This document shows, piece after piece, positions 2,521-11,677 of a stretch of DNA of 11,902 bases. Numbering within the stretch: position 1 is the stretch's first letter; every line of letters starts with the position of its first letter. A model generated the notes under the pieces. It was not told where the DNA came from, searched no databases, and worked only from the letters and a program-made list of their open reading frames with translations. The DNA comes from a virus (lineage: Duplodnaviria > Heunggongvirae > Uroviricota > Caudoviricetes), in IMG/VR virus record IMGVR_UViG_2778261167_000009. One strand, given 5' to 3'. The translations under genes were made by a program, and so were the position numbers.

Positions 2521-2961
2521 TCAGTCATCATCGCCATACATCCAGTCGTTACGGTGTGCCGCCCGTTCTTCCTGCTCGCGATACATGCCCGCTTTACGGT
2601 TTGCTTTCGTGGCTGGATCTTCCCGTGTCGTCTTACGGTTGTGGCACGTCTGGCACAATGCCTGGTGATTCCACTCAGGCCAGAAGAGAACATCACCGCC
2701 GCCATTGATGGGAATGATGTGATCCACCACAAGAGCTGGTGTATAAATACCCTTAGCCAGACAACGCACGCATAACGGGTTTTTGCTCAGGTACAGGGCG
2801 CGGTATTTGTCCCACTGTCGGGAATACCCACGTGCGCGGCGGTGTCCCCGTCTGGCATCCTCTGCACGCCATGCAGCCCGCCTGTGCTCTTCACACTTGC
2901 CGGACTTCACGCGCTTATTACAGCCCGGCTCAGTGCATCGCCTTAATGGTTGCCACGGCAT
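2521..2961 (-). CDS. HNH endonuclease, packaging-associated
   Basis: 146-aa translation with cysteine pairs (CTEPGCNKRVKSGKCEEH, CVRCLAKG) and an HNH core (VVDHIIPINGGG...NHQALCQTCHNRKT). ATG at 2959-2961 shares one nucleotide with the connector stop. Located immediately upstream of terS. Confidence 0.9.
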   Translation of the reverse strand: MPWQPLRRCTEPGCNKRVKSGKCEEHRRAAWRAEDARRGHRRARGYSRQWDKYRALYLSKNPLCVRCLAKGIYTPALVVDHIIPINGGGDVLFWPEWNHQALCQTCHNRKTTREDPATKANRKAGMYREQEERAAHRNDWMYGDDD

Positions 2962-3263
2962 CAGTACACCCCCACATCACGATAAACCGACCAGAGCGCA
3001 GAAATAGCCATAGGCAGTTCCGAGTGCTCAACTGGTGAAACCGCTTCCCGGTTCTCGTACAGGAAAGCGATGTACATCAGGCAACCAACACGTATTGCCG
3101 GGGTAAATTCCAGGCCGTCTTCAAAACGTTTCCCGATATGCTTCTGGCAGGCTTCCAGCGCCGCATCGGTATATATTTGCAGAAGTTCAACCTCACCATA
3201 AAAATCATCATCAAGGCGAAGATGGGCCATTACTTCATTAAGCGTAATTCTGGATTCACTCAT
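2961..3263 (-). CDS. Head-tail connector/adaptor protein, gp6-like
   Basis: Translation from the ATG at 3261-3263 (MSESRITLNEVMAHLRLDDDFYGEVELLQIYTDAALEACQKHIGKRF...) fits the gp6-like connector pattern. RBS GGTG lies upstream. The ORF-track extension to 3350 overlaps the portal 3' end and is not used. Confidence 0.75.
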   Translation of the reverse strand: MSESRITLNEVMAHLRLDDDFYGEVELLQIYTDAALEACQKHIGKRFEDGLEFTPAIRVGCLMYIAFLYENREAVSPVEHSELPMAISALWSVYRDVGVY

Positions 3264-5086: not shown

Positions 5087-6256
5087 CTAGCCAGCTTTCA
5101 TTTCCAGAATTTTGATGGCGTTTGAATCCACCACACCACCGCCCAGATATTTATCCGTGTGGACCTTGTAGAATCCGGGTTCAGTAATGTTGTCCGGTCG
5201 GGTGCGAATCCCTGTTACATGATCAACGATGAAATAACCACGACTGAAATCGCCAACCGCTAGCGGTGCTTTTCCTGTGCCGATGTCCGGCATGGACTCC
5301 AAGCAGTAAACAGGACGACCAAGCAACATATCCGGCGCACCTTCTTTAAGGCTGTCGCGCCAGATATAATCGCCGTTCTCATTTTTCAGCTTCTGTAGTG
5401 TCCCTGCCGTGCCCGAGTTCATCACCCAGACGGCATTTTTGCGGTATTTCGCTTTCAGCTTGTAGAGAATGTCGATCAGTTCGTCCGCTGTAATGGCGGT
5501 TCCACTTGCCGCTACCATTTTTTCAATGGTGCCAAAAGCGCGGGTTTTGTCACTGGTCGCCGCACGGGTGTAAGCCATGAAGCCTTTCGGCTTGCCGTTA
5601 CCGTCGCCATTAACAAAATCATCCTCTTCGGTGCTGGCGAACGTGTCGGCAATTTCGGAGGATAACCAGCCCAGAATATCCACCTCTGAAAAATCTAGGA
5701 TTTCCTGCGTGGTTTTCGGGTAGGCGTAGATCGGATTCAGCTTGATGGTTACGCGTTCAATTTTCGGGGTGTTGGTTTCACTGCGTGCGCTGCCTTCTGT
5801 GCCTCGTCCTACAGTTGCGCCGCCAGTGGAAACCAGTTTCTGAAACTCATTTGATTTTGCAGTCTTCACGGTCGCGATCACGCGCATAACACTGTCATCC
5901 TGTAGCTGGCGCATGACTTCGCGATCAAGCTCAGGAATTACGGTATATCCGCCATCCCTGCCGCTGTCAGTGCTGGTGGACAGAGATCGCACATCTCCGG
6001 TTACGATGTAGTTACGCAATTCATCAGATGATAATTTCTGGATGCCCGTTCCTGGCTTGCTGCGTTCTTCATCAGCCACAGACTCGAGGCGGGAAATTTC
6101 TGTGTCGAGGGAGTCGGCTTTTGCACGCAGTTCATCAAACTGTTTGCCCTCGTCATCGTTCAGGCTGCGGTTTTCACTGTCGGCTTTTTCCAGCAGAGAT
6201 CGCATCTGGTTTTTCAGGGCGGTTTTTTGCTGGCGGAGTTCGATTAATTTCTTCAT
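5087..6256 (-). CDS. Major capsid protein, HK97 family, with N-terminal coiled-coil delta/scaffold domain
   Basis: 389-aa translation. The first ~100 residues are charged and coiled-coil-like (KKLIELRQQKTALKNQMRSLLEKADSENRSL...), followed by an HK97-type capsid core (GGYTVIPELDREVMRQL, FMAYTRAATSD, GRPVYCLESMP). Confidence 0.9.
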   Translation of the reverse strand: MKKLIELRQQKTALKNQMRSLLEKADSENRSLNDDEGKQFDELRAKADSLDTEISRLESVADEERSKPGTGIQKLSSDELRNYIVTGDVRSLSTSTDSGRDGGYTVIPELDREVMRQLQDDSVMRVIATVKTAKSNEFQKLVSTGGATVGRGTEGSARSETNTPKIERVTIKLNPIYAYPKTTQEILDFSEVDILGWLSSEIADTFASTEEDDFVNGDGNGKPKGFMAYTRAATSDKTRAFGTIEKMVAASGTAITADELIDILYKLKAKYRKNAVWVMNSGTAGTLQKLKNENGDYIWRDSLKEGAPDMLLGRPVYCLESMPDIGTGKAPLAVGDFSRGYFIVDHVTGIRTRPDNITEPGFYKVHTDKYLGGGVVDSNAIKILEMKAG

Positions 6257-6481
6257 GAAGGTTTTCTCGTATTGGTTAAGATTCAGGACGTGAAACCAAC
6301 ACGGAGGGAGCGCCGCCCGACACTCTCGGCATCTCGCAGATCAACCCGGCATCGCGCAGGGGGTCAGGCGGCATTGTGGCGGCTCACGTCTGAGTGCCAC
6401 GCTCCAACATATACATAAAAATCAGTATGTAAACACCTGTCAGTCAGACCGAACAACCACGAAAGAACACGAACAAATAAT

Positions 6482-6511
6482 TTACAAAAGAAGTAAACCA
6501 TGGCCTATTAT
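6482..6511 (+). promoter_or_regulatory. Putative sigma70 promoter for the AT-rich cargo gene
   Basis: TTACAA (6482-6487), 18-bp spacer, TATTAT (6506-6511), then RBS AAAGGA (6531-6536) and ATG at 6543. Pattern match only. Confidence 0.35.
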
Positions 6512-6542
6512 TGCTGTCTCTGACTACAACAAAGGACGCATC

Positions 6543-7049
6543 ATGAATTTAAGCGCAATGGTATACCCTGATACTTTCATAATTAATGGCGAATCATTCA
6601 GAGGTAAAAGAAACGCAAAAGAAAACAAGGTATTAATTCCATATACAAATGAACCGGAAGTAACTATTGGTCAACACATTATCCAGCGTGTCGGTAAAAA
6701 CGAGATAAATCTAAAAATTATAGATATGAAGTTGCTTCCCAATGGAACCCTCAGACAGGGAACCAATCATCCAAATATGTTGACTCTCTATATTGAAAAT
6801 ATCACGGGAAATGAACATATGACGCCAACTAAAAGTAATACATTTAACATTGGTTCAATTAGTGGTGATCAAGTGCAGATAGGTGAGCATAACCATATGC
6901 TGGTAAACATCAGCATCACTGAACTGGTTGAAAAAGTCGCTAAATCGGGGGATGTACAAGCCAAATCAGTATTAAAGCAGTTACTGGAAAACAGTACCGT
7001 TGCCAGCATTGTTGGGGCTGGCGCAAGTGCCCTAATAGGCTTACTGTAA
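6543..7049 (+). CDS. Hypothetical 168-aa protein, AT-rich cargo/moron gene; unrecognised N-terminal domain and C-terminal hydrophobic glycine-zipper-like tail
   Basis: The only long plus-strand ORF in the core, opposite to all flanking genes and visibly more AT-rich. Good RBS and its own promoter and terminator. Translation ends ...ENSTVASIVGAGASALIGLL. No family recognised. Confidence 0.7.
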   Translation: MNLSAMVYPDTFIINGESFRGKRNAKENKVLIPYTNEPEVTIGQHIIQRVGKNEINLKIIDMKLLPNGTLRQGTNHPNMLTLYIENITGNEHMTPTKSNTFNIGSISGDQVQIGEHNHMLVNISITELVEKVAKSGDVQAKSVLKQLLENSTVASIVGAGASALIGLL

Positions 7050-7051
7050 AA

Positions 7052-7086
7052 AAATGGCCTGGATTTTACCAGGCCTTTATTATTTT
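7052..7086. terminator. Bidirectional rho-independent terminator between convergent genes
   Basis: Stem GGCCTGG (7056-7062), loop ATTTTA, stem CCAGGCC (7069-7075), flanked by an A-run upstream and TTTATTATTTT downstream, so a U-tract follows the hairpin on both strands. Stop codons of the 6543-7049 gene and the 7085-7333 gene abut it. Confidence 0.6.
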
Positions 7087-7333
7087 ACCGTTTCACGGGA
7101 TCGCGCATTCTGCGCCTTATTTTCCACAGATATTCGATCATTGCTTCCACCTGCTCACGGTTGGTTGCGAAAATTTCCCCGGTCAGTGAGCTACGCAGAA
7201 AATCATGATGATCCACAAAAAACAACGCATCGGAAGAAAGCAGACGGCGATATTTTTTTGCTGTCATGGTTTCCAGATCATCAAAATCATGAAACTTTTT
7301 ATGTTGCTGGACTTCTTCAAATGTCACTGGCAT
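7085..7333 (-). CDS. Hypothetical 82-aa protein
   Basis: Translation from the ATG at 7331-7333 (MPVTFEEVQQHKKFHDFDDLETMTAKKYRRLL...), preceded by RBS AGAGGGG. The ORF-track extension to 7381 would overlap the SSB gene. No family recognised. Confidence 0.55.
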   Translation of the reverse strand: MPVTFEEVQQHKKFHDFDDLETMTAKKYRRLLSSDALFFVDHHDFLRSSLTGEIFATNREQVEAMIEYLWKIRRRMRDPVKR

Positions 7334-7349
7334 GTCCCCTCTGTTGTCG

Positions 7350-7775
7350 CTAAAACGGTATGTTGTCCCCGTACGGATCATCGTGCTGACCCGTCTGCTG
7401 TTTTGCCCTGTTCAGTGCGTCAGTCGCCTGGCTCTGCTGGCCTTTTTTGCCGTCCGGTCGCACCGTTCGCGCACTGATTACGCTGTCTGCGATAACCTGC
7501 CAGCCTTGCCGCGTTTCGCCGTTCTGGCCTGTCCACTGGCTTACCTGCATGTTACCCACCACGCTCACCAGTTCGCCTTTGTGGTGTTTTGCCAGTGCAT
7601 CGGCCTGTCTGCCAAACGCCAGAACAGAAAGCCACATCGTCACCGCACCATCATCAGCCTGACTGCATGGCAGGGGGACCGCCATACTTACCATCGCCAT
7701 TTGTGTACCCTTGCTGGTGGTCTTTAACTGTGGGTCATTTGTCAGCCGCCCGTAAGCGGCTATCTGTGCTGTCAT
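7350..7775 (-). CDS. ssb: Single-stranded DNA-binding protein (SSB-like OB-fold) with acidic C-terminal tip ...DNIPF
   Basis: 141-aa translation aligns by eye with bacterial SSB (IAAYGRLTNDPQLKTT..., WLSVLAFGRQADALAKHHKGELVSVVGNMQVSQWT...G..R) and ends DDPYGDNIPF, like the host SSB tip DDDIPF. Strong RBS GGAGGG; ATGA overlap with the upstream ORF. Confidence 0.8.
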   Translation of the reverse strand: MTAQIAAYGRLTNDPQLKTTSKGTQMAMVSMAVPLPCSQADDGAVTMWLSVLAFGRQADALAKHHKGELVSVVGNMQVSQWTGQNGETRQGWQVIADSVISARTVRPDGKKGQQSQATDALNRAKQQTGQHDDPYGDNIPF

Positions 7776-8017
7776 GATTCCATCCCTCCGGTGTTAACGT
7801 TGATGGTTGTCACCTGTTCCGCTTCGGCAATCTCCCGCTCTATCAGCGTGGCAAAATTTGCCGCCGCCGTGGTCATGAATGCGCTTATCAGTTCGGAATG
7901 TGCTTTCGCGTATCCTTCCCCGGCGTTGCGGTCGATGATTTTTATCGACACCCTTAACCAGTGTTCCGTCAAATCAAGGGCGTGCGATTGTGATTTTTTT
8001 GTGTGCTTCGCTGTCAC
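7772..8017 (-). CDS. Hypothetical 81-aa protein (GTG start), between ori and ssb
   Basis: ORF starts with GTG at 8015-8017 and has a weak SD. Its TGA overlaps the ssb ATG. No family recognised; could be shorter or non-coding. Confidence 0.35.
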   Translation of the reverse strand: MTAKHTKKSQSHALDLTEHWLRVSIKIIDRNAGEGYAKAHSELISAFMTTAAANFATLIEREIAEAEQVTTINVNTGGMES

Positions 8018-8063
8018 AGGCTTTATCTCACAGCAGTAAATTAAAATTTTTGCGTTTTAACCC

Positions 8064-8301
8064 TTCACCTGTTCACCTTTTGATATTTTCTCTTTTAATT
8101 CATAATGTTAAGGGGTGAACAGTTTCAAAAAAACTATTCACCAACTGTTCACCACTGTTCACCACTGTTCACCCTTGAAGCTCAATAAACAATCAAAAAG
8201 GTGAACAGTGAATAGTTTGGTGAACAGTTCATAAATAACTGTTCACCCTATAATATACTGATATAAAAGATATTTATGACAGGGTGAACAGTGGTGAACA
8301 G
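8064..8301. repeat. Iteron array, candidate origin of replication (P4-type TGTTCACC iterons)
   Basis: Ten exact copies of CTGTTCACC/GGTGAACAG in both orientations (8069, 8114, 8145, 8155, 8165, 8200, 8219, 8239, 8283, 8293) plus variants CTATTCACC (8134) and GTGAATAG (8208). Three are tandem at a 10-bp period (8144-8173). AT-rich spacers lie between them. Immediately 3' of the primase/helicase gene. Confidence 0.6.
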
Positions 8302-8314
8302 TTATTCCATAAGT

Positions 8315-10132
8315 TTAATTTTTGCTATCGTCATTAGTGACCGATACACATGATGGCATCCAGTCTTCTGATTCCTCCGTCAGTGTCACGTTTGAACGCA
8401 AACCGTGCTTCGTTTTCCGTTTCATATACTCCCTGCCATATTCCGCCATTGCCCCCGGCATATCTTTACCGAAGCGCGTCAGTGTTACAGGTTTACCAAA
8501 CCCATGTGCCCTCATATAAGCCAGATAGGCATGATAGAGATACCTGCGTGGGCTGAATGGCACAATTTCAGCATTACCCACTAACAGGCCATCACACATT
8601 ACCGACGCCATGAGATAGCCGCAGAAGTCCACCAGCGAATCCCCCTCTCGCTTTATCGCCAGTGCTTCTTCAGATTTCTGCTGCTCATATAACAGGCGTC
8701 TGGCTTCGTCCTGGTCAGCAAACCGTGTAAGCAGATGGCGAATCACTACCGCCAGCTCACCTTCTATTTTTTCCGCCAGCATTGGATCACGTTCGTTCTC
8801 CGGTACAACTTCCGAAAAATTGAATATCACCCGACGACGTGAGATCCCCCCGCTGCGGTCACTGAATGACATGGCGTTATTGTTAACCGCCAGCACTACT
8901 GCCGGAATACGTGTTGAGTAGGGGGCTTTGTGTTTCGGGTCAATTGCCACCTTGTCACCGCCTGTAATAGCCTTAATCCCTGCCCCATCACCAGCGTAGC
9001 GGGTCATATCCGGCATGATAATCAGCGAAAAGCCAACCACTAACGCGCGTTCCCTTGCATCTTCCAGCGCCTTCATGCTTGCCGATACTGTGTTGGCCTT
9101 ACCCGCCAGCATGGTGCAAATCTCCGCCATCACGCTTTTACCACTTCCCCCTGGACCTGTTACCTCAATGAATAACTGCCAGTCGTACCGGTTCGCCAGC
9201 ACCATGAATAATGCAGCCAGTACGCGATCCGCCTTGCGGTCATTCTCAGCCACCGAACGGCGTAACCACTTCCAGAAATTCGGCGCATGTGTTGCCAGCG
9301 TTTCCCCCTCTGCTGGTGGGCTGAAAGGTAATTCACTGGCAATTAACAACCAGTCGTTTTTGTTATGCTCCCGAAAATTACCTGTTCTGGTATCAAATAC
9401 CCCGTTACTGAATCCAATCAGGTTACGGGCTGTATTCCCCATTACAGGCAAACTTAACTTCATGGTATCGACCGCTGATTTAATAGCGTTCTGTGAATAG
9501 CTGATCTCCGCATCAATGAAAATCTGCGCCATAGCACGCTGTAACTCTTTATCCTGAACCGGCTCCCATACAACGCCGTTGTAATGGTGAACAGTGTCAG
9601 AGTCAGCATGAATCGCCAGTTCACCACCATAATGTGCCAGGAGAACTTCGCCGCGTTGACTTGCTCCCATCTGGTTAAGCGCCAGTGATGAAGCGTTATC
9701 GTCTTTTACCCGCTCTTTTTTCTTTACAGGCAGTTCAACTACCTTTTTCTTTTCCGCCAGCTCTCCCCGCTCACGCTCCAGATATTCGCGCCAGTTCTCC
9801 CGTTTCTGGCTGTGCATTCCTTCAGGGTAATAATCAGCATCCCTGACACCTGCCGCTGCCAGTTTCTGCCCGATGGTATTAACAAGCACCGGACGCAATA
9901 ACCCCGCCTGATAGAGACGCACGCGATAGCGTCCGTCCGGTACGATTTGCAGGTTGTCCAGTTCGGCAAGTTGTTGCTCTCCAAGCCAGACAGGTGGCAC
10001 GTTATCGCCTGCCAGTCGCCCGTCCTGTTCCTGCCACTGCTTCGCATGTGCCCACGCATCACTACCCGCAAAAATGATGACTTCCGTCATTTTGTCACGC
10101 GGCTGGTGTTTTAAATTTGGCGCTTTTTTCAT
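8315..10132 (-). CDS. Replication protein: P4 alpha-like primase/helicase (D5-N-like domain plus SF3-type P-loop NTPase)
   Basis: About 605 aa from the ATG at 10130-10132 (MKKAPNL...) with RBS GGAGAGAG. Walker A VTGPGGSGKS, Walker B-like LIIMPD, and a D5-N-like central region (NLIGFSNGVFDTRTGNFREH). The ATG overlaps the upstream ORF stop (ATGA). The ORF-track start at 10147 is GTG. Confidence 0.9.
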   Translation of the reverse strand: MKKAPNLKHQPRDKMTEVIIFAGSDAWAHAKQWQEQDGRLAGDNVPPVWLGEQQLAELDNLQIVPDGRYRVRLYQAGLLRPVLVNTIGQKLAAAGVRDADYYPEGMHSQKRENWREYLERERGELAEKKKVVELPVKKKERVKDDNASSLALNQMGASQRGEVLLAHYGGELAIHADSDTVHHYNGVVWEPVQDKELQRAMAQIFIDAEISYSQNAIKSAVDTMKLSLPVMGNTARNLIGFSNGVFDTRTGNFREHNKNDWLLIASELPFSPPAEGETLATHAPNFWKWLRRSVAENDRKADRVLAALFMVLANRYDWQLFIEVTGPGGSGKSVMAEICTMLAGKANTVSASMKALEDARERALVVGFSLIIMPDMTRYAGDGAGIKAITGGDKVAIDPKHKAPYSTRIPAVVLAVNNNAMSFSDRSGGISRRRVIFNFSEVVPENERDPMLAEKIEGELAVVIRHLLTRFADQDEARRLLYEQQKSEEALAIKREGDSLVDFCGYLMASVMCDGLLVGNAEIVPFSPRRYLYHAYLAYMRAHGFGKPVTLTRFGKDMPGAMAEYGREYMKRKTKHGLRSNVTLTEESEDWMPSCVSVTNDDSKN

Positions 10133-10434: not shown

Positions 10435-10755
10435 TTATCCCCGATTTGAATCAGTATTCGCTTTCTTTATGGCATTTAATGCATCTGTGGCATTTTCAAT
10501 GGTGCACCGTAACGAAATATCAAAATGTCCAAGCATTGCCAGTAACAAACCGATATTACCCATATCAATGCGCATGGCCTTTTCGTCATATTCCTCATTT
10601 TCTGACGCATGCCACATCAGGCTACCAATTGACGCAACAGCCATTGATATATTGTCAGTAGCCCCATCCGCAGCGGAATAAACCTTTTTAGCAATATCAT
10701 GCTCACAGTTAAAATGCGGATTAATCAGGTACTGGTAATTTGACATATCAGGCAT
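10435..10755 (-). CDS. Hypothetical 106-aa protein
   Basis: Complete ORF with ATG at 10753-10755 and RBS AGGGGG; AT-rich. No family recognised. Confidence 0.6.
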   Translation of the reverse strand: MPDMSNYQYLINPHFNCEHDIAKKVYSAADGATDNISMAVASIGSLMWHASENEEYDEKAMRIDMGNIGLLLAMLGHFDISLRCTIENATDALNAIKKANTDSNRG

Positions 10756-10951
10756 GGCACACCCCCTGACGAATACGGGCGGCGAATACCATCACGCAGC
10801 CAGCCGGGGATTGCTGGCGTGCTTCCTGTTCGCTGGTGGCCACGATGTGAATCACGCGCGGTTGTGCCGTGCTCAGGGCGATAAAACGCCAGATGAATTT
10901 ATTCAGGTTGTGCGAGTCCCGCCCTTGCGGGTGTGTGGTATGATTTAACAT
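10748..10951 (-). CDS. Candidate 67-aa first gene of the leftward operon
   Basis: This is the C-terminal in-frame part of the spurious 306-aa ORF. ATG at 10949-10951 is preceded by GAGGT; stop at 10748-10750 overlaps the next gene start. Translation MLNHTTHPQGRDSHNLNKFIWRFIALSTAQPRVIHIVATSEQEARQQ... is plausible but unrecognised. Confidence 0.35.
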   Translation of the reverse strand: MLNHTTHPQGRDSHNLNKFIWRFIALSTAQPRVIHIVATSEQEARQQSPAGCVMVFAARIRQGVCHA

Positions 10952-11047
10952 AGCTACCTCGATACTTCTGCTATCGTTGGTGGTTAGAAGCCCGGTTAGT
11001 GTTAGCGCACTGCCGGGTTTCGTCGTTTCTGCACCTTGCATCAACAA

Positions 11048-11100
11048 GGTGTTAAACACCAATTTAAGCCTAGGTGTTAAACACGTCAAGTGTTGAACAC
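11048..11100. promoter_or_regulatory. Three palindromic operator-like sites overlapping a putative promoter for the plus-strand small-gene module
   Basis: GGTGTTAAACACC (11048-11060), GGTGTTAAACACG (11073-11085), GTGTTGAACAC (11090-11100). The last overlaps a -35-like TTGAAC (11093-11098), with 17-bp spacer and -10-like CATACT (11116-11121). GGTTAG direct repeats lie upstream (10982, 10994, 11000). Confidence 0.45.
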
Positions 11101-11150
11101 TTATTTTTTTTCCTGCATACTGCATTTGTTTTTTGTAAGGAGTACACAAC

Positions 11151-11330
11151 ATGGCGACAAAAGCAGTAAACGCAAAATCACAAACAGTTGCGGCAAGGGT
11201 TCCGCATGAAGTTATGAACAATGTTGAGGCGGTAAAAATGCCTGGTGAAAGTACAGGGCAGTTTGTAACAGCAGCATTAAAGCGAGAAGTTGAATACCGC
11301 CAGCATCGCAAGGCCAAAGAGCAGGAGTAA
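11151..11330 (+). CDS. Arc/MetJ-like ribbon-helix-helix DNA-binding protein, 59 aa
   Basis: Below the ORF-track size cutoff. Strong RBS AAGGAG (11137-11142) 8 nt before the ATG. Translation MATKAVNAKSQTVAARVPHEVMNNVEAVKMPGESTGQFVTAALKREVEYRQHRKAKEQE has a beta-strand then two helices in the RHH pattern. Confidence 0.6.
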   Translation: MATKAVNAKSQTVAARVPHEVMNNVEAVKMPGESTGQFVTAALKREVEYRQHRKAKEQE

Positions 11331-11387
11331 CCATCACCAGCGCCGTGGTGCGGTGAACTGTGGCGCACAGGGTTACAGGTATCTACG

Positions 11388-11567
11388 ATGACTGACAAAT
11401 CATTAAAGAAATTATCCTCATCCAAGAAAAAACAACGCAAAAATGCGGTAAACGAACATGAACCGGAGAGATTCGCACCATGTGCGTTTATCCTTGAGAA
11501 GTACCTTAAAGAGTATTCTAGGAAAATACGCTCATTGCAGGCATGGCAGCGAATCGAGCCAGACTGA
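11388..11567 (+). CDS. Hypothetical small basic protein, 59 aa
   Basis: Below the ORF-track cutoff. ATG at 11388 with weak SD (AGGT); translation MTDKSLKKLSSSKKKQRKNAVNEHEPERFAPCAFILEKYLKEYSRKIRSLQAWQRIEPD. Lies between the RHH gene and the plus-strand terminator. Confidence 0.4.
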   Translation: MTDKSLKKLSSSKKKQRKNAVNEHEPERFAPCAFILEKYLKEYSRKIRSLQAWQRIEPD

Positions 11568-11631
11568 TAGCATTGCCCACTAGCCGACAACCTGGTATTC
11601 TGGATATGCTCAAGTTTAGTGTTATGCCACT

Positions 11632-11660
11632 GGCGACCGCCCCCGGTCGCCTTTGTTTTA
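11632..11660 (+). terminator. Rho-independent terminator ending the plus-strand small-gene module
   Basis: Stem GGCGACCG, loop CCCC, stem CGGTCGCC (11632-11651), followed by TTTGTTTTA. It sits inside the 306-aa minus-strand ORF, arguing that ORF is not real. Confidence 0.6.
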
Positions 11661-11677
11661 TGTGTCATAGCTCCCCC

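Follow-up and report, generated by a model that had tools for sequence, protein, structure and literature searches.

A candidate one-protein cell-death defence with a RHIM-like segment in the accessory slot of a capsid-forming phage satellite of Escherichia coli

The DNA analysed here, referred to as the window, is a stretch of 11,902 nucleotides from a virus of the Caudoviricetes (IMG/VR record IMGVR_UViG_2778261167_000009) and comprises most of a capsid-forming phage-inducible chromosomal island (cf-PICI), a phage satellite. One of its genes, an open reading frame (ORF) at 6543-7049 on the plus strand, codes for a protein of 168 aa, hereafter the target, which is a candidate cell-death defence consisting of a single protein; enterobacteria have no described example of this kind. 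Judged by sequence comparison, the gene is horizontally acquired cargo in a hotspot between the capsid and replication genes of the cf-PICI. Its product seems to unite a sensor, a switch and an effector in one chain: an interchangeable beta-barrel N-domain, a presumably amyloid-prone segment resembling the RIP homotypic interaction motif (RHIM) at residues 100-124, two amphipathic helices, and a C-terminal helix. With a probability of roughly 0.45, the protein may be a self-contained effector of the abortive-infection type, in which a triggered RHIM-like assembly would cluster the membrane tails. Expression, membrane insertion, amyloid formation, the trigger and the anti-phage effect are points that we only infer.

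The RHIM-like segment (TFNIGSISGDQVQIGEHNHMLVNIS) occupies residues 100-124 (6840-6914, plus strand) and was recognized in the family alignment and in profile searches. It is rich in N, Q, G and S and beta-prone, and its core is the tetrad V111-Q112-I113-G114 (6873-6884), which conforms to (I/V)-Q-(I/V/L)-G. When 35 homologues were aligned, I103, Q112, G114 and N117 proved to be invariant, and Q112 and G114 were equally invariant in 91 motif windows. The invariant heart of the whole family can be written as phi-N-I-x-x-phi-x-G-x-x-(V/I)-Q-(I/V)-G-x-x-N-x-(Q/M). The initial clue was a sub-threshold match to Pfam RHIM in one distant member; the original prediction, which presented the gene as a candidate defence cargo, had overlooked both this segment and the modular architecture of the protein.

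A profile of the whole-family motif (A2), built from the 91 non-redundant windows of 26 residues each, was searched against 177,635 distinct PDB sequences. It retrieved seven matches, all of them RHIM fibril chains of RIPK1, RIPK3 or a viral RHIM, with E values of 1.2e-4 for RIPK1 (8ib0, 9m6m), 0.008 for the viral RNR-like RHIM, 0.02-0.035 for RIPK3 and 0.23 for a further RIPK1 chain (9hr9). If an insertion of two residues is allowed, 10 of 17 positions of the RIPK1 core are identical to the target. RHIM was also the sole Pfam family matched recurrently (15 of 139 representatives at E <= 0.01), and eight of ten distant full-length members exceeded its gathering threshold (PF12721; 20 bits) with scores of 20.1-25.2 bits. 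Some relatives, such as Pandoraea WP_023596881.1, are named 'RIP homotypic interaction motif-containing protein' by NCBI. Alignment of the target family with RHIM-named or RHIM-positive relatives by hhalign extended over about 140 columns, including the barrel, with a probability of 97% (E = 1e-10 to 2e-11), and it sets S-G-D-Q-VQIG of the target on N-S-Q-G-(V/I)QIG with a gap of two residues. AF2 models residues 92-122 as a beta-hairpin region of low confidence (pLDDT 44-52). At the level of sequence, a RHIM-like relationship of the family is established; for the putative amyloid formation, the low AF2 confidence and the beta-prone composition are the only indirect evidence.

The protein had been said to match no recognizable family. 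This held for Pfam, NCBIfam and PADLOC, but not for PHROGs, in which the target belongs end to end to phrog_5789, a family of unknown function. The literature searched, on the protein accessions, phrog_5789, RHIM-like proteins of phages or enterobacteria and the accessory genes of cf-PICIs, contained no account of this family. The 98 homologues of about 168 aa, all annotated as hypothetical, come from Enterobacterales, Pseudomonas, Shewanella, Xanthomonas and Azomonas. When 1.84 billion representative proteins were searched with a profile, 254 matches were obtained, many of which share only the last 75 or so residues with the target and have unrelated N-terminal regions. The N-terminal regions of 164 proteins fall into at least 17 BLAST-distinct types, one of them a zinc ribbon and several of them helical. 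The part that recurs is a C-terminal module made up of the RHIM-like segment, two amphipathic helices and the hydrophobic tail, joined to varying N-terminal regions. Within the close family, mean pairwise identity is highest in the tail (76%), followed by the central segment (67%), the helices (64%), the N-domain (55%) and the linker (33%). A profile of the C-terminal module searched against an index of 5.8 billion proteins returned fragments only and no informative fusions, and phmmer searches of the PDB sequences with the full protein and with the module yielded noise only. EAD10, matched by one member only (E = 0.0096), was set aside.

The N-terminal domain (residues 1-90; 6543-6812, plus strand) is a putative sensor or binding domain, for which AF2 predicts a small beta-barrel with confidence over residues 10-86 (pLDDT about 90). 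Foldseek found nothing at E <= 0.001 in PDB or BFVD. On the basis of the model, we treat the domain as a generic small split barrel. Two more specific identities were tried and rejected. For the head-closure protein (HCP) or stopper family Phage_HCP (PF05521), hhalign against an HCP of a cf-PICI gave a probability of 0.3%. For the cyclic di-GMP (c-di-GMP) receptor PilZ, the motifs RxxxR and (D/N)xSxxG are absent, the target having R20-G-K-R23 and D61-M-K-L-L-P-N-G instead; Pfam gave no PilZ match in the target, and the likeness is one of fold only.

The two amphipathic helices take up residues 125-150 (6915-6992, plus strand) and contain the conserved residues S135, D137, A140, K141, L144, L148 and N150. 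AF2 places helices at 125-135, 138-149 and 151-167. The last of these corresponds to the hydrophobic C-terminal helix STVASIVGAGASALIGLL (residues 151-168; 6993-7046, plus strand), which has small-xxx-small spacing and is a putative tail anchor or membrane-inserting helix. Hydropathy peaks in this tail (Kyte-Doolittle mean 1.76-1.91), which is also the best-conserved region of the protein, and in 115 of 156 family proteins the C-terminal end lies exactly 19 residues past the conserved Asn. The tail had been described as a glycine zipper. It is indeed hydrophobic and carries a ladder of small residues, A154-G158-S162-G166, which together with G160 spans four turns, but it fits neither strict zipper pattern. 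According to Kim et al. in 2005, a strict transmembrane glycine zipper reportedly reads (G,A,S)xxxGxxxG or GxxxGxxx(G,S,T). No match of the target to the Gly-zipper families of Pfam was found either. Going by its sequence, 'membrane-seeking small-residue helix' would be the safe description.

A concrete mechanism is plausible because the RHIM-like motif is combined with a modular architecture. In the uninfected cell, the protein would be monomeric, harmless, and either soluble or tail-anchored. Upon infection, a phage-derived and probably multimeric ligand would gather the N-domains, and the gathered N-domains would nucleate cross-beta self-assembly of the RHIM type. The assembly would pack the C-terminal helices densely in the inner membrane, leading to permeabilisation. 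The infected cell would then die or stall before phage release, which amounts to abortive infection, and the satellite-bearing clone would be protected. A broader version, which we regard as rather doubtful, posits a one-component, RHIM-amyloid-gated killer in unicellular Proteobacteria, their phages and satellites. Each interchangeable N-domain would recognise a different phage structure; the barrel of the target, perhaps a mimic of head-closure proteins, could detect the assembly of a neck or portal; cross-beta polymerisation would drive the C-terminal helices into the membrane; and the two-gene forms of Klebsiella and Enterobacter would represent a split sensor and effector. If this were true, RHIM-based cell-death signalling would extend to mobile elements of E. 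coli.

The genomic setting was derived from the ORFs and Pfam matches of the window. The minus strand encodes TerL, TerS, HNH, a head-tail connector, portal, HK97-type protease and the major capsid protein, and then, on the same strand, SSB, a D5_N/Pox_D5 primase, DUF4222, an Icd-like protein and AlpA. A near-identical island is located in E. coli TUM12357 between thiM and rcnR, together with a tyrosine integrase (RefSeq). This island (L001) measures about 14.7 kb from 'hypothetical/terL' to the integrase, and no tail, lysis or holin genes are annotated in it. All genes named in the published definition of cf-PICIs were found (integrase, AlpA-type regulator, primase/replication, own capsid, protease, portal, connector, HNH, TerS and TerL), and the TUM12357 island agrees with that definition in size (about 10-18 kb) and in having neither tail nor lysis genes. 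At 2961-3263, HNH and portal are separated only by a Phage_connect_1 gene in the E. coli cf-PICI and its sister L002; an extra Phage_HCP is present there in Serratia, Klebsiella and metagenomic cf-PICIs (L013 6399-6734, L099 5385-5720, L100 4644-4982).

When the window was compared with the sister cf-PICI L002 by blastn, homology was found at 6051-6489 and 7069-7341, and the 579 bp in between are replaced by 27 bp in L002. This accessory cassette (6490-7068, without strand; 38.2% GC) lies between the invariant element ...ATAATTTACAAAA and the flank formed by a terminator and an 82-aa gene. By this alignment, the cassette is an indel relative to L002, in a slot with the capsid gene on one side and the replication genes on the other. 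The left flank (86 bp) is shared by 131 of 5,426 complete E. coli genomes, and 51 of these 131 have the gene. It is missing from 61% of the sister islands, and those sister islands are also without HCP. The assignment of the gene as self-contained accessory cargo at a variable satellite junction was therefore borne out.

The survey for a variable hotspot that had been suggested was carried out on 80 cf-PICI-like loci fetched via the capsid protein, and it pointed in the same direction. In about one third of the loci with enough flank, one to three ORFs on the opposite strand are found just upstream of the capsid gene. The target family fills the slot in 6 of the 80 loci; through its homologues, it was also found in the slot of Serratia, Klebsiella and metagenomic cf-PICIs, and the genera concerned are Serratia, Klebsiella, Enterobacter, Kluyvera, Pluralibacter, Winslowiella and Rosenbergiella. 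Other occupants are a DRT UG17 reverse transcriptase with a SLATT effector in Xenorhabdus (L033 3662-5559; E = 5e-161 and 2e-57), the PDC-M18A/B defence candidates in Citrobacter (L020 3085-4642), the type VI secretion system (T6SS) protein Hcp with a GH19 chitinase-like enzyme in Erwinia (L025 4616-5682), a YopJ-family acetyltransferase in another Xenorhabdus locus (L056 3093-3992), and an outer-membrane protein. The regions beside the packaging operon of cf-PICIs have been described as variable and 'expected to encode immune systems' (He et al. 2025, bioRxiv 10.1101/2025.02.11.637232). In Photorhabdus temperata (L076 5106-5715), the family gene in the slot is broken up into one ORF for the N-part (102 aa) and another for the C-part (58-74 aa), and this split copy is apparently a frameshifted pseudogene.

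The gene itself was called as predicted: RefSeq annotates the same 168-aa ORF at 6543-7049 in TUM12357 as a hypothetical protein. Its AT-richness was equally evident, with a GC content of 37.9% and a GC content at third codon positions (GC3) of 35.7%, compared to 50.6% GC for the rest of the window and a GC3 of 56% for the capsid gene; the 507-nt segment of lowest GC in the whole sequence begins at 6401. A good ribosome-binding site, AAAGGA (6531-6536, plus strand), read from the sequence, lies 6 nt before the ATG, and homologous loci have a purine-rich GGGGGA at the same place. Downstream, the hairpin of a bidirectional intrinsic terminator (7056-7075, without strand; GGCCTGG/CCAGGCC), flanked by an A-run at 7050-7055 and a T-run at 7076-7085, was called on both strands (dG -17.5 kcal/mol, z = -5.1 vs shuffles). 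The promoter elements attributed to the gene fared worse. TTTACA (6481-6486) and TATTAT (6506-6511) form weak promoter-like elements (6481-6511, plus strand) that the scan did not call; they are separated by a poor 19-nt spacer, and the -35-like hexamer is part of the backbone, not of the cassette. It sits within the invariant backbone element ATAATTTACAA, which is kept at empty sites and in distant cf-PICIs, and ATTTACAA is invariant in seven cf-PICIs and likewise present at the empty site. The gene is probably expressed alone from the resident island.

The capsid-proximal intergenic region at 6400-6489 (L002 5001-5086) is conserved in distant cf-PICIs and contains the invariant blocks ATATACAT..., G.AAA and ATAATTTACAA. 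The sole promoter-like site called by the scan there is on the minus strand (TTTACA-16-TATGTT, 6433-6406). Based on these sequence features, the region is probably the regulated promoter/operator of the packaging operon. The insertion point of the cassette lies directly after the invariant TTTACAA(AA). No RNA family of Rfam matched in the window.

Cooperation with the convergent 82-aa gene had been considered possible. This gene (phrog_1957) is not a partner, because it belongs to the backbone flank of the indel and occurs, with 94% conservation, in L002, which has no cassette. Read as a 98-aa ORF (7085-7381, minus strand), it gives a sub-threshold match to Pfam Imm15 (E = 0.004, 17.6 bits vs a cutoff of 22.9); the shorter 82-aa form, starting at M17, is supported by RefSeq and phrog_1957.

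Two-gene versions of the cargo were found in cf-PICIs of Enterobacter soli, Winslowiella and Klebsiella, where a protein of 245-255 aa with a different N-domain precedes the 168-170-aa gene (L100-L103 8230-9510; L017 4428-5779; L026 4452-5738), in Klebsiella (L100) with a gap of 4 bp. The tandem pairs share the RHIM-like motif, and the N-domain of the larger partner carries LRGDGFxFPEKK. In the Klebsiella and Enterobacter soli partner, the motif is degenerate and the tail is polar rather than hydrophobic. By analogy, such motif-sharing pairs resemble the gene pairs of amyloid signalling.

Outside the cf-PICI slot, members of the family were observed in several settings, many of them neighbourhoods of a defence type that count in favour of a defence cargo. 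A zinc-ribbon variant is located 25 bp downstream of AbiTii on a metagenome contig (L098), and the gene directly follows the defence candidates PDC-S31 in Xanthomonas (L009) and PDC-S60 in Shewanella (L006). In Pseudomonas (L003), a P2-like prophage carries it in its accessory end region together with a subtilase, and a Pfam-RHIM-positive member has Dam and HigBA in its neighbourhood. Lambdoid phages carry it in moron positions: one phage has it after Rz, another on the opposite strand in the interval from Q to the lysis genes. In Xanthomonas (L008/L009 7800-19500) and Shewanella (L006/L007 10000-15000), the homologue is part of long runs of small same-strand ORFs, mostly without Pfam matches apart from weak ones to Tdi1_C and DUF4431; the Xanthomonas run is downstream of a 1370-aa Laminin_G_3 protein. 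These runs resemble an array of immunity or defence genes. Homologues also occur in the K. pneumoniae 'non-mobilizable plasmids' CP018459.1 (16,971 bp) and NZ_CP069874.1 (15,995 bp), in the phage record OR850982.1 (3.8 kb), and at the end of the 106-kb 'Klebsiella phage' record PQ569648.1 (L010), where the local order of portal, protease, capsid, cargo and primase is cf-PICI-like. These plasmid and phage records may be circularised or co-assembled cf-PICIs.

Several observations weigh against an amyloid-gated abortive-infection effector. The target itself has no Pfam RHIM match at E <= 0.01 and stays below the gathering threshold, its core reads G-D-Q-VQIG and not G-phi-Q-phi-G, and a profile of the close subfamily finds only RIPK1 and RIPK3 chains, at non-significant E values (0.06-1). 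RHIM-like motifs are short and rich in N, Q and G, and they may have arisen by convergence. At 17-18 residues, the tail is borderline or short for a transmembrane span and departs from the strict glycine-zipper patterns. No second motif-bearing ORF was found in the window or within 10 kb on either side in 15 loci (L001-L015), and because there is no motif-bearing partner gene, a one-component model departs from all characterised amyloid-signalling systems. A search of PADLOC-DB 2.0.0 returned no family at E <= 1 for the target protein, and a scan for consensus sigma-70-like sites gave no credible plus-strand promoter upstream of the gene. Finally, location alone does not imply defence, because the hotspot also carries cargo unrelated to it, such as Hcp with GH19, YopJ and the outer-membrane protein.

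The same data were considered under four other explanations. The protein could be a membrane-anchored prophage or satellite moron that acts without amyloid, for instance in superinfection exclusion or as a block to DNA entry, with the beta segment as an ordinary oligomerisation hairpin and the tail as a permanent anchor. A hydrophobic helix of fixed length at the extreme C-terminus, the moron positions of the gene in temperate phages and satellites, and the sub-threshold RHIM score of the target's own subfamily would all agree with this. AF2 also draws short beta-hairpins at 102-124, but with very low confidence; further points against it are that the motif profile picks only RHIM fibrils from the PDB and that distant homologues pass the Pfam RHIM threshold. 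Swappable N-domains on a constant C-terminal module suit the logic of a sensor and effector better than that of a fixed entry blocker, and we consider such a moron unlikely. A small membrane toxin, lysis-timing factor or addiction factor, holin-like or bacteriocin-like and unrelated to infection sensing, would account for the hydrophobic small-residue tail and for the one distant homologue placed just after the lysis cassette of a lambdoid phage; cf-PICIs, moreover, have no lysis genes of their own. However, the protein has neither a signal peptide nor a second transmembrane segment, no co-varying antitoxin or immunity gene is adjacent, the gene and the late operon occupy opposite strands, and a large, conserved, interchangeable N-domain is not what a simple membrane toxin would be expected to have. 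This explanation is quite improbable.

Viral RHIM proteins such as M45 and ICP6 poison RIPK1 and RIPK3, and the target could be a comparable anti-defence decoy that co-assembles with and blocks an amyloid-signalling immunity of the host, so that the satellite or its helper can replicate. RHIMs are employed for counter-defence by viral and bacterial pathogens (bioRxiv 10.1101/2024.11.07.622273), the gene is borne by satellites, prophages and phages, and a viral RNR-like RHIM chain is among the PDB matches. Yet no RHIM- or BASS3-type host system is known in Enterobacterales, and BASS motifs are essentially confined to multicellular bacteria (Dyrka et al. 2020, bioRxiv 10.1101/2020.01.06.895854). 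A decoy would have no need of the conserved membrane tail, the neighbours of the family are defence candidates and not anti-defence clusters, and the orientation of the gene suits expression from the resident island rather than together with the induced operons; we judge a decoy improbable. A role in the satellite life cycle is very improbable. Here the stopper-like N-domain, at the membrane, would bind necks, tails or portals of the helper, so as to disturb the assembly of the helper or to help cf-PICI capsids capture tails. It is true that cf-PICIs depend on hijacked tails and that the present island lacks the Phage_HCP gene that other cf-PICIs carry. The sister islands without the gene, the majority, likewise have no HCP, and their existence argues against such a function, as do the copies in chromosomal, prophage and phage contexts without a satellite and the negligible hhalign probability for the cf-PICI HCP given above.

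Some further features of the window lie apart from the cassette. A 306-aa ORF listed at 10748-11668 on the minus strand is probably spurious; RefSeq has an Icd-like gene (about 204 nt) and a YlcI/YnfO-family gene at 11151-11330 instead. The latter is on the plus strand, and the target gene, which had been called the only plus-strand gene in the core, is consequently not the sole one of the island. In the stretch of about 0.9 kb that separates the replication genes from AlpA, little coding sequence is annotated, and it is possibly a regulatory region. A second AT-rich trough (36.5% GC) is found at 8001-8400, in non-coding DNA upstream of the primase gene, and may mark an origin or a promoter.

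Among known systems, the closest in E. coli to the proposed abortive-infection effector is Bab/Agp (BASS11) of strain ECOR25, in which an amyloid-controlled membrane effector executes abortive infection (Ibarlosa et al., bioRxiv 10.1101/2024.11.07.622273). Both are found in E. coli on a mobile element or in a defence island, and both combine a short amyloid-type motif with a small helical membrane-targeting part that includes a glycine-bearing hydrophobic helix, a likeness of layout. The proposed outcome, membrane damage and abortive infection, is also alike. In Bab, however, the hydrophobic helix is N-terminal and the motif C-terminal, whereas the order is reversed in the target and the motif is internal. 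Bab depends on Agp, a sensor of 1094 aa that is encoded next to it and bears the same motif, whereas the window holds no partner, and the motif of Bab/Agp is BASS11 and not RHIM-like. The BASS3/RHIM-like Bell-NLR pairs of Actinobacteria and Cyanobacteria share with the target the phi-Q-phi-G core, in some cases with a Pfam RHIM annotation, and a predicted membrane-targeting helical region. Their motif is found at the C-terminus of Bell-domain proteins and at the N-terminus of adjacent NLRs, while the target family belongs to unicellular Gamma- and Betaproteobacteria and mobile elements and has neither NLR nor Bell, but variable N-domains and a C-terminal hydrophobic tail. Adjacent genes with the same motif at the N-terminus of a sensor and the C-terminus of an effector, by which BASS pairs are recognized, were not found in the window or in L001-L015. 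The target likewise differs from Bell and Babybell proteins in having a beta-barrel at its N-terminus and its hydrophobic helix at the C-terminus.

The RHIMs of metazoans and viruses (RIPK1, RIPK3, ZBP1, TRIF; M45/ICP6; PF12721) have the core (I/V)Q(I/V)G followed by x-x-N-x-(M/L/Q) in common with the target, but in the target two additional residues precede the tetrad, and no kinase, Z-alpha or TIR domain flanks the motif. Fungal HET-S/HELLP proteins (HeLo/HeLL with a prion/PP motif) also join an amyloid switch and a membrane-inserting death helix in one polypeptide. They differ in being triggered by a separate NLR or prion template and in having an N-terminal transmembrane helix and a C-terminal motif, and they have no sequence or fold relationship to the target. 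As cargo, the cassette is comparable to the defence genes in the hotspots of PICI, P4 and P2 elements: it is a self-contained, AT-rich, opposite-strand cassette in a variable slot. The known systems DRT+SLATT and PDC-M18 sit in this very slot of related cf-PICIs, whereas the present cassette has no PADLOC match. The family thereby adds a concrete cargo to a little-studied accessory hotspot of cf-PICIs.

We have not filed the family under BASS or Pfam RHIM, because the order is reversed, the motif is internal, no NLR/TGP partner is present and the N-domains are interchangeable; set apart from both, it is best called a new variant of amyloid-gated cell-death effectors, with the candidate status given above. 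RHIM amyloid signalling is central to necroptosis, and its bacterial relatives have been thought to be limited to multicellular Actinobacteria and Cyanobacteria, where they are paired with NLRs. In E. coli, the first report of abortive infection under amyloid control dates from 2024 and concerns a single two-gene system whose motif is a different one. The family described here ranges over Entero-, Pseudomonas-, Vibrio-, Shewanella-, Xanthomonas- and Pandoraea-type genomes, often in satellites or prophages. If the mechanism holds, this widespread family of about 170 aa would offer a minimal, genetically tractable model of how a membrane effector is gated by a cross-beta switch, and RHIM-type signalling would have its origin pushed into the conflict between phages and bacteria.

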